From Escherichia coli (GTDB lineage: Bacteria; Pseudomonadota; Gammaproteobacteria; Enterobacterales; Enterobacteriaceae): DNA of 64,000 bases. The notes beneath the pieces were generated by a model. That model was not told the DNA's origin. It saw only the letters and a program-made list of their open reading frames with translations, and ran no database searches. The number at the start of each line of letters is the position of its first letter. Positions within the stretch are counted from its first letter, which is position 1. Positions 53,646-63,613 of this stretch are shown here, piece by piece. Position numbers and translations under genes: made by a program. The stretch lies in the NCBI RefSeq assembly GCF_002854065.1, contig NZ_CP024147.1, one strand, 5' to 3'.

Positions 53646-53885
53646 TTAAAATTACAAAGCAAGAAATTATAAGTGAACTGATATTTATTATCATTTGAAA
53701 TGAATTTAACTTAAGCGACAATTATTTGTGACGGTCATTGCAGAAAATAAAAATAATATTATCGTTATAAATTAAAACACATATCGAAATTCGTATAATT
53801 TCAGCAGTTGTTATTTAGAATGATTAACTGGACCGCAACTGAAGCAAGAATATCAGGATGAAGCTTATCGCCTCATCCTGAATGG

Positions 53886-62970: not shown

Positions 62971-63339
62971 CTATACCCCAAAGCTTTCGCCACAGCCACA
63001 TTCATTCTGGGCTTTAGGGTTGTGAAATTTGAATATCTGATTAAGTCCTTCACGAACGAAATCGACTTCCGTGCCATCAATAAACGGCATCGCTTGCAGC
63101 GGGACAAACAGCTTCGCGCCGTCGTGTTCAAACAGCAGATCGTCTTTGTCCGGCTCGCTAACACTGTCGAGCACATAGCCAAAGCCCGCGCAGCCCGTTT
63201 GCTTCACACCTAAGCGCACGCCGACCATACCTGGCTGCTTTGCCACCAGCTCGCGGATGTGGACAGCGGCTGCGGGTGTCAGCGTTAAGCCTTGCCAGGC
63301 GAAATCCTGTGGATTAAAGGTTCCTGAATGCATGTCCAT
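62971..63339 (-). CDS. sufA: Fe-S cluster A-type carrier SufA
   Basis: 122-aa ORF; C-terminal CGCGESF motif; recognised. Confidence 0.95.
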
Positions 63340-63384
63340 CGATTTACCTCACTTCATCGCTTTCAGCGTATAACAGCATGTTAG

Positions 63385-63399
63385 TGATAATGATTATCA
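63385..63399. promoter_or_regulatory. Fur-box-like palindrome in the suf operon promoter region
   Basis: tgataatgattatca approximates the Fur consensus GATAATGATAATCATTATC; ~50 bp upstream of sufA start. Confidence 0.55.
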
Positions 63400-63613
63400 G
63401 TTCAACCCAGCAAACGCAGGGGCTTTACCGTAAAACATGCTTTTTGCCTGCTTTTAATAAGCATAGACCCTGATGTGTGGGTTAACAGGCACGCTAAGAA
63501 TTAGGTATCTCATTGTTAGATAATGATTATTATCTAAGGAGCATTAAGGCTGTGATGAAAAAGAAAAAGTTGTATTGAAAATGACTATTTAAGAGATAGG
63601 TAAAAAAGTGCAG

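Follow-up and report, generated by a model that had tools for sequence, protein, structure and literature searches.

Two Fur-Like Palindromes Upstream of sufA in Escherichia coli: The Known Fur Operator and a Sequence Overlapping the IHF Element

The sufA Upstream Region

The window analysed here, that is, the whole 64-kb stretch of DNA to which all positions refer, ends in the sufA–rydB–ydiH intergenic region of E. coli, its last kilobase being 100% identical to E. coli chromosomes across the annotated sufA and ydiH genes. The annotated features that frame the region of interest are the following:

62971..63339, minus strand: sufA coding sequence, first gene of sufABCDSE (an ORF of 122 aa; identical DNA is annotated as sufA)
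63661..63721, minus strand: rydB small RNA gene, the upstream neighbour of sufA, which bounds the regulatory region (Rfam RF00118, 81.6 bits, E = 1.6e-19)

In an Rfam scan of the region rydB was the sole hit. The layout of MG1655 is the same, with sufA at 1764018-1764386 and rydB annotated at 1764713-1764780 (positions in NC_000913.3 are obtained by adding 1701047 to those of the window); the DNA upstream of sufA is the control region of the E. coli sufABCDSE operon, which has been characterised before, and nothing in it is structurally different. A base-by-base comparison with MG1655 falls out of register from 63802 onwards (63802-64000), which points to an insertion or deletion with respect to K-12 towards the ydiH end of the window.

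Conservation was assessed on sufA loci from 80 genomes, from which the 450 bp upstream of the gene were aligned for 48 species of Enterobacteriaceae, five of Escherichia and 43 others. Five conserved blocks emerge from the alignment: the Fur box with the promoter hexamers, the IscR site (63402-63427), a block at 63459-63481, the IHF site and the OxyR site (63569-63600). Outside Escherichia, rydB with its terminator hairpin can be recognised upstream of sufA in some Citrobacter and one Leclercia only (alignment columns 100-270), unrelated sequence being found at this place in the other genera.

The Core Promoter and the Proximal Fur Operator

The transcription start of sufA was placed with the help of two anchors from the literature. 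In a 2025 paper of the Kiley laboratory (PMC12594620), the Fur site of sufA is mutated by changing -26ATA-24 to TAT and the IscR site by deleting -56 to -51 or by changing -50C to G, and an upstream OxyR site is told apart by means of reporters. Only a start at 63371 gives a sense-strand ATA at -26 to -24 (63397-63395) together with a C at -50 (63421); with this start, TAACAT falls at -12 to -7 and TTGAAC at -34 to -29, both hexamers being conserved in the alignment. The promoter-proximal elements are then as follows:

63371..63405, minus strand: sufA core promoter (+1 at 63371; -10 hexamer TAACAT, 63378-63383; -35 hexamer TTGAAC, 63400-63405; 16-nt spacer)
63383..63401, no strand assigned: proximal Fur box AGTGATAATGATTATCAGT (centre 63392, that is, -21), identified by its score of 20.9 bits, a perfect 7-1-7 repeat, conservation and a published mutation
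63402..63427, minus strand: IscR type-2 site region (ORE-III), which holds the published IscR-site mutations and the conserved block AAnnCCCCTG...GGGTTGAA

The earlier note had placed a Fur-like 20-mer at 63381-63400 and had related it to the known Fur repression of sufA. Both statements hold: the 20-mer ttagtgataatgattatcag is found at exactly that place, and the published mutation -26ATA-24 falls exactly on the box. The Fur 19-mer covers -12 to -30, between TTGAAC and TAACAT, which is the classical position for occlusion; it agrees with the classical 19-bp consensus GATAATGATAATCATTATC at 16 of 19 positions and contains a perfect 7-1-7 element, TGATAATnATTATCA, at 63385-63399, with the repeat TGATAATGATTATCA. 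A Fur site of 18.9-27 bits is present at this place in 48/48 Enterobacteriaceae, and the five Escherichia species do not differ within the box, which, together with both hexamers, is nearly invariant over the 48-species alignment. In the literature, sufABCDSE is a Fur target both by ChIP and by expression, and Chen et al. 2007 (PMC2189734) report a Fur cluster of 21.3 bits at sufA -53, which corresponds to 63392 in the window. Sequence, conservation and literature together identify the proximal box as the Fur operator already known for sufA.

In Intestinirhabdus alba an insertion of about 96 bp lies directly after the Fur box (alignment columns 569-664), so that the Fur site is now at -151 from the ATG and is split from the segment CAT..GCCAT, the counterpart in the alignment of the -10 region of the other species.

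Position and Strength of the Distal Box

The second of the two palindromes had been described in the earlier note as a 20-mer at 63495-63514, about 165 bp upstream. The sequence in question, ttagataatgattattatct, is in fact at 63516-63535, 21 bp away from that place and 177-196 bp from the sufA ATG (63339), the distance between the proximal and the distal box being 133 bp. The distal element is best described as a 9-4-9 palindrome, TTAGATAAT-gatt-ATTATCTAA:

63516..63537, no strand assigned: distal Fur-like palindrome (Fur 19-mer 63516-63534, centre 63525, that is, -154), overlapping the IHF core by 3 bp

The two boxes share the 12-mer GATAATGATTAT, which occurs exactly twice in the window, at 63386-63397 and at 63519-63530, against an expectation of 0.01 copies from shuffled sequences. 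The shared core proposed earlier is present at both boxes. Identity is limited to it, the flanking bases agreeing at no more than 1/12 and 3/12 positions, which indicates similarity at the level of the motif and not duplication.

The shared core, moreover, is polymorphic in E. coli. Alleles at 63526 were counted as exact 60-mer matches among 5414 complete E. coli genomes:

63526 = A (source window): exact 60-mer in 1977 of 5414 genomes; distal core GATAATGATTAT; 15.8 bits
63526 = G (K-12 MG1655): exact 60-mer in 3259 of 5414 genomes; distal core GATAATGGTTAT; 12.9 bits

Thus, A is found in about 36% of the genomes, including O157:H7, and G in K-12 and about 60% of them, and C is carried by the E. 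coli genome L002. The majority allele, that of K-12, abolishes the shared 12-mer at the distal box; from the allele counts, the shared core belongs to a minority allele.

For quantitative scoring, a 19-bp matrix of 9-1-9 form was built from 19 experimentally supported E. coli sites in NC_000913.3, drawn from the footprinted and gel-shifted Fur sites whose genome coordinates are given, along with a 9-1-9 model named "M9", by Chen et al. 2007 (PMC2189734; NAR 35:6762). The matrix agrees with that work, whose sufA and ydhY entries are reproduced: the site centred at 63392 scores 20.9 bits (21.3 in the paper) and that centred at 53686 scores 19.5 bits (19.9 in the paper). The claim that both boxes resemble the Fur consensus, for which position-weight scoring had been suggested as a check, is borne out. 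The proximal box (20.9 bits, centre 63392) is the top Fur site of the window, and the distal box, with 14/19 matches to the classical consensus and 12/14 on the 7-1-7 model, reaches 15.8 bits (centre 63525), the third best score in the 64 kb. The training sites span 11.4-28.5 bits; the distal box scores above the footprinted sites of tonB (11.4) and fur (12.4) and below 16/19 of the set. A second Fur-like site, of 7.9 bits, lies 3 bp from it (4.0 bits with the K-12 allele). Sites of at least 15.8 bits are expected 0.004 times per 300 bp of the composition of the region, and for the K-12 allele (12.9 bits) the chance expectation is 0.017 per 300 bp; the resemblance of the distal box to a Fur site therefore exceeds chance and, judged on sequence alone, it would pass as a moderate Fur site.

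A further strong Fur site in the window, ACTGATATTTATTATCATT (53677-53695, centre 53686, 19.5 bits), corresponds to the "ydhY -255" cluster of Chen et al. 2007 (PMC2189734), where it is given at 19.9 bits with neither experimental data nor a reference.

The IHF and OxyR Elements and Their Relation to the Distal Box

Upstream of the IscR site, two further elements are recognised in the alignment, IHF and IscR sites having been judged by consensus matching and phylogenetic footprinting:

63506..63518, minus strand: IHF core of ORE-II, TAACAATGAGATA in E. coli, aligned with WATCAANNNNTTR in other genera
63569..63600, minus strand: OxyR site (ORE-I) CCTATCTCTTAAATAGTCATTTTCAATACA, strongly conserved, with the family consensus CTAT-N7-ATAG-N7-CTAT

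The coordinates of the three elements relative to the start, reportedly given by Lee, Yeo and Roe in 2004, are -236 to -197 for ORE-I/OxyR (63568-63607), -156 to -127 for ORE-II/IHF (63498-63527) and -56 to -35 for ORE-III (63406-63427); once +1 is set at 63371, each of the three lands on a conserved block. In reviews, the order of the elements is ORE-I/OxyR, ORE-II/IHF and ORE-III/IscR, with a single Fur element, and the secondary literature describes IHF at ORE-II as looping OxyR to RNA polymerase.

The IHF block reads WATCAANNNNTTR, with an invariant TCA and an invariant T. In the 43 species outside Escherichia the 13-mer is perfect in 23 and carries one mismatch in 14 more; in all five Escherichia species it carries two. 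These are an A at 63516, where 43/43 of the others have T, and an A at 63508, where T is found in 39/43, so that the IHF core is degenerate specifically in this genus. Within Escherichia the core shows one change, at an unconstrained position. The sufA strand of E. coli reads TTAGATAATAATCATTATC-TAACAATGAGATA, and its last 13 bases (63518-63506) are those that align with the IHF core; it follows that the Fur-like box is the A/T-rich 5' arm of the IHF site, for which E. coli has TTAGATAATAATCATTATC and the family consensus is AAAnnCATTATTT. The complete IHF site (63506-63537) is located between the OxyR block at 63569-63600 and the promoter at 63371-63405.

A second candidate for the IHF core, AATCATTATCTAA, lies within the palindrome; it likewise shows two mismatches, acquires a third in K-12 and was rejected as the main core, the orthologous alignment favouring TAACAATGAGATA and the extra mismatch arising in the very strain where IHF dependence has been shown. 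For ArcA and NsrR sites at the distal box, comparison by eye with the consensus sequences gave weak matches.

A third Fur-like sequence, ATTGAAAATGACTATTTAA, with a score of 12.0 bits, is found at 63574-63592 (centre 63583, about -212), inside the conserved OxyR site; this indicates that A/T-rich palindromic sites of other proteins gain Fur-like scores in this region.

The remaining conserved block, CAGGGTCTATGCTTAnTAAAAG, occupies 63459-63481 on the sufA strand, roughly -88 to -110 relative to the sufA start. It matches none of the four known regulators of the sufA promoter and gave neither an Rfam hit nor a promoter match. The sequence GGTCTATGCTTA within it is conserved in 44/48 Enterobacteriaceae, the other four showing one G-to-C change, and an inverted repeat, CCCTG-N13-CAGGG, adjoins the block on its upstream side on the sufA strand.

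What the Distal Box Represents

Two possibilities had been offered for the distal box in the earlier note, namely, a second Fur site or coincidence with the region reported for IHF and OxyR. As to the latter, the box does coincide with the IHF element ORE-II, while the OxyR site is located further upstream, at 63569-63600; as to the former, the sequence test is passed, and the position relative to the promoter and the conservation speak against it. Coincidence with the IHF element is the better supported of the two.

We consider it probable that the region contains one real Fur operator and, on the A/T-rich arm of the IHF site, a sequence that resembles a Fur box. The proximal box fills the spacer that separates the -35 hexamer from the -10 hexamer, and iron-loaded Fur thereby blocks RNA polymerase as well as the adjacent activator IscR; IHF would bend the DNA at ORE-II, and OxyR at about -213 could then contact the polymerase. 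The Fur likeness of the distal box probably has two components: the general build of an IHF site, in which WATCAA comes after an A/T-rich arm and which in itself resembles a Fur half-site (ATTATCA), and substitutions of the Escherichia lineage which, with the A at 63526 in the source strain, happen to have raised the match. The low scores outside Escherichia, the overlap with the IHF core and the polymorphism of a central base suggest that the distal box is not under selection as a Fur site, and it would be dispensable for Fur repression. Counter to this reading, the box scores above some footprinted Fur sites (tonB, fur) and is unlikely to arise from base composition alone; in addition, the presence of non-consensus IHF bases in all Escherichia means that the element has changed in the genus, and something beyond plain IHF conservation may operate.

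The distal box might instead be an auxiliary operator at which Fur, bound at -154, competes with IHF for ORE-II; it would keep OxyR off suf when iron is plentiful, or help to hold Fur at the promoter, and its effect would be stronger with A at 63526 (O157:H7 and the source window) than in K-12. We regard this as unlikely, despite a score that is the third best in 64 kb and exceeds those of the weakest footprinted training sites, its rarity by chance, the 7.9-bit site 3 bp away, the physical overlap with the IHF core and the persistence of 11-16 bits in all five Escherichia species. Overlapping sites at 3-bp spacing, as at the distal box, are seen in real Fur clusters (Chen et al. 2007, PMC2189734), and promoters with two separate Fur-protected regions do exist, fhuF1 and fhuF2 being an example. 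Conservation is, however, confined to the genus: at the aligned place the five Escherichia species have Fur scores of 11.2-15.8 bits, whereas the 43 others reach 11.6 bits at most, with a median of 3.4. Even inside the genus, the 19-mer has substitutions that reduce its score in E. albertii, E. whittamii and Escherichia sp. E1V33, three of the four species other than E. coli, and within E. coli a core position is polymorphic. The distal box lies at -154 from the sole supported start, with no overlap with the core promoter, and the centre-to-centre distance of 133 bp corresponds to 12.7 helical turns, so that the two boxes are not on the same face of the DNA. From the side of the literature, the Fur site of sufA is removed in published work by a single mutation, in the proximal box (PMC12594620), and sufA is entered only once in the table of Chen et al. 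2007 (PMC2189734), which lists sites scoring over 17 bits; the distal site (15.8 bits; 12.9 in K-12) is under that threshold, and 363 further clusters are not listed in the paper.

A related and rather doubtful proposal is that in Escherichia an ancestral, perfect IHF site was partly remodelled into a dual IHF/Fur element, through which OxyR induction would be gated by iron in a manner dependent on 63526. Should the distal box bind Fur, it would provide an iron-dependent veto on the activation of the stress Fe-S assembly system by OxyR and IHF, and the A/G difference at 63526 would constitute a natural allele pair for testing it.

It is very improbable that the distal box marks a second, upstream promoter of sufA, with GATAAT as -10, ATCACA as -35 and the Fur-like box overlapping it, in the manner of ordinary Fur-repressed promoters. 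A scan does find ATCACA-N16-GATAAT on the minus strand at 63556-63529, with 9/12 matches; but two such matches were found versus a mean of 1.3 in shuffles of the region, which is not significant, the GATAAT half is not conserved outside Escherichia, and the promoter and terminator scan of the region returned hits at chance level only. The gene is not known to have an upstream transcription start.

An origin of the distal box by duplication of the proximal one, suggested by the identical 12-mer, is scarcely credible and is refuted by the non-matching flanks; besides, GATAATGATTAT conforms to the Fur consensus in its own right and is found in the Fur site of nohA as well, CATTAT, which forms the 3' half of the distal box, is aligned in every genus with the IHF arm, and K-12 is without the full shared 12-mer.

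Comparison with Known Systems

The region corresponds to the known architecture of the E. coli sufA promoter in locus, in elements and in their order, the difference being that the known K-12 promoter has G at 63526, in the IHF arm, where the source strain has A. This architecture was reportedly worked out by Lee, Yeo and Roe in 2004, by Outten, Djaman and Storz in 2004 and by Lee, Yeo and Roe in 2008. Both the sufA Fur box and the IHF element were already known, and the present finding re-identifies a textbook promoter.

Canonical IHF sites consist of WATCAANNNNTTR and an A/T-rich arm on its 5' side. In most genera the orthologous sequences are perfect matches, and the sufA element shares with such sites the position between a remote activator and the promoter; the E. 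coli core differs by its two mismatches, which fall at the positions where T is nearly or fully invariant in the other species.

The fhuF promoter resembles that of sufA in having two Fur-like regions about 80-130 bp apart, one strong and one weaker (fhuF1 and fhuF2, 22.3 and 14.6 bits; Chen et al. 2007, PMC2189734). At fhuF, however, both regions have been footprinted, whereas the weaker region of sufA is known from sequence and coincides with the site of another protein. At the sufA promoter, the IHF and OxyR sites score 12-16 bits with a good Fur matrix, an illustration of how genome scans may mistake A/T-rich sites of other proteins for Fur boxes.
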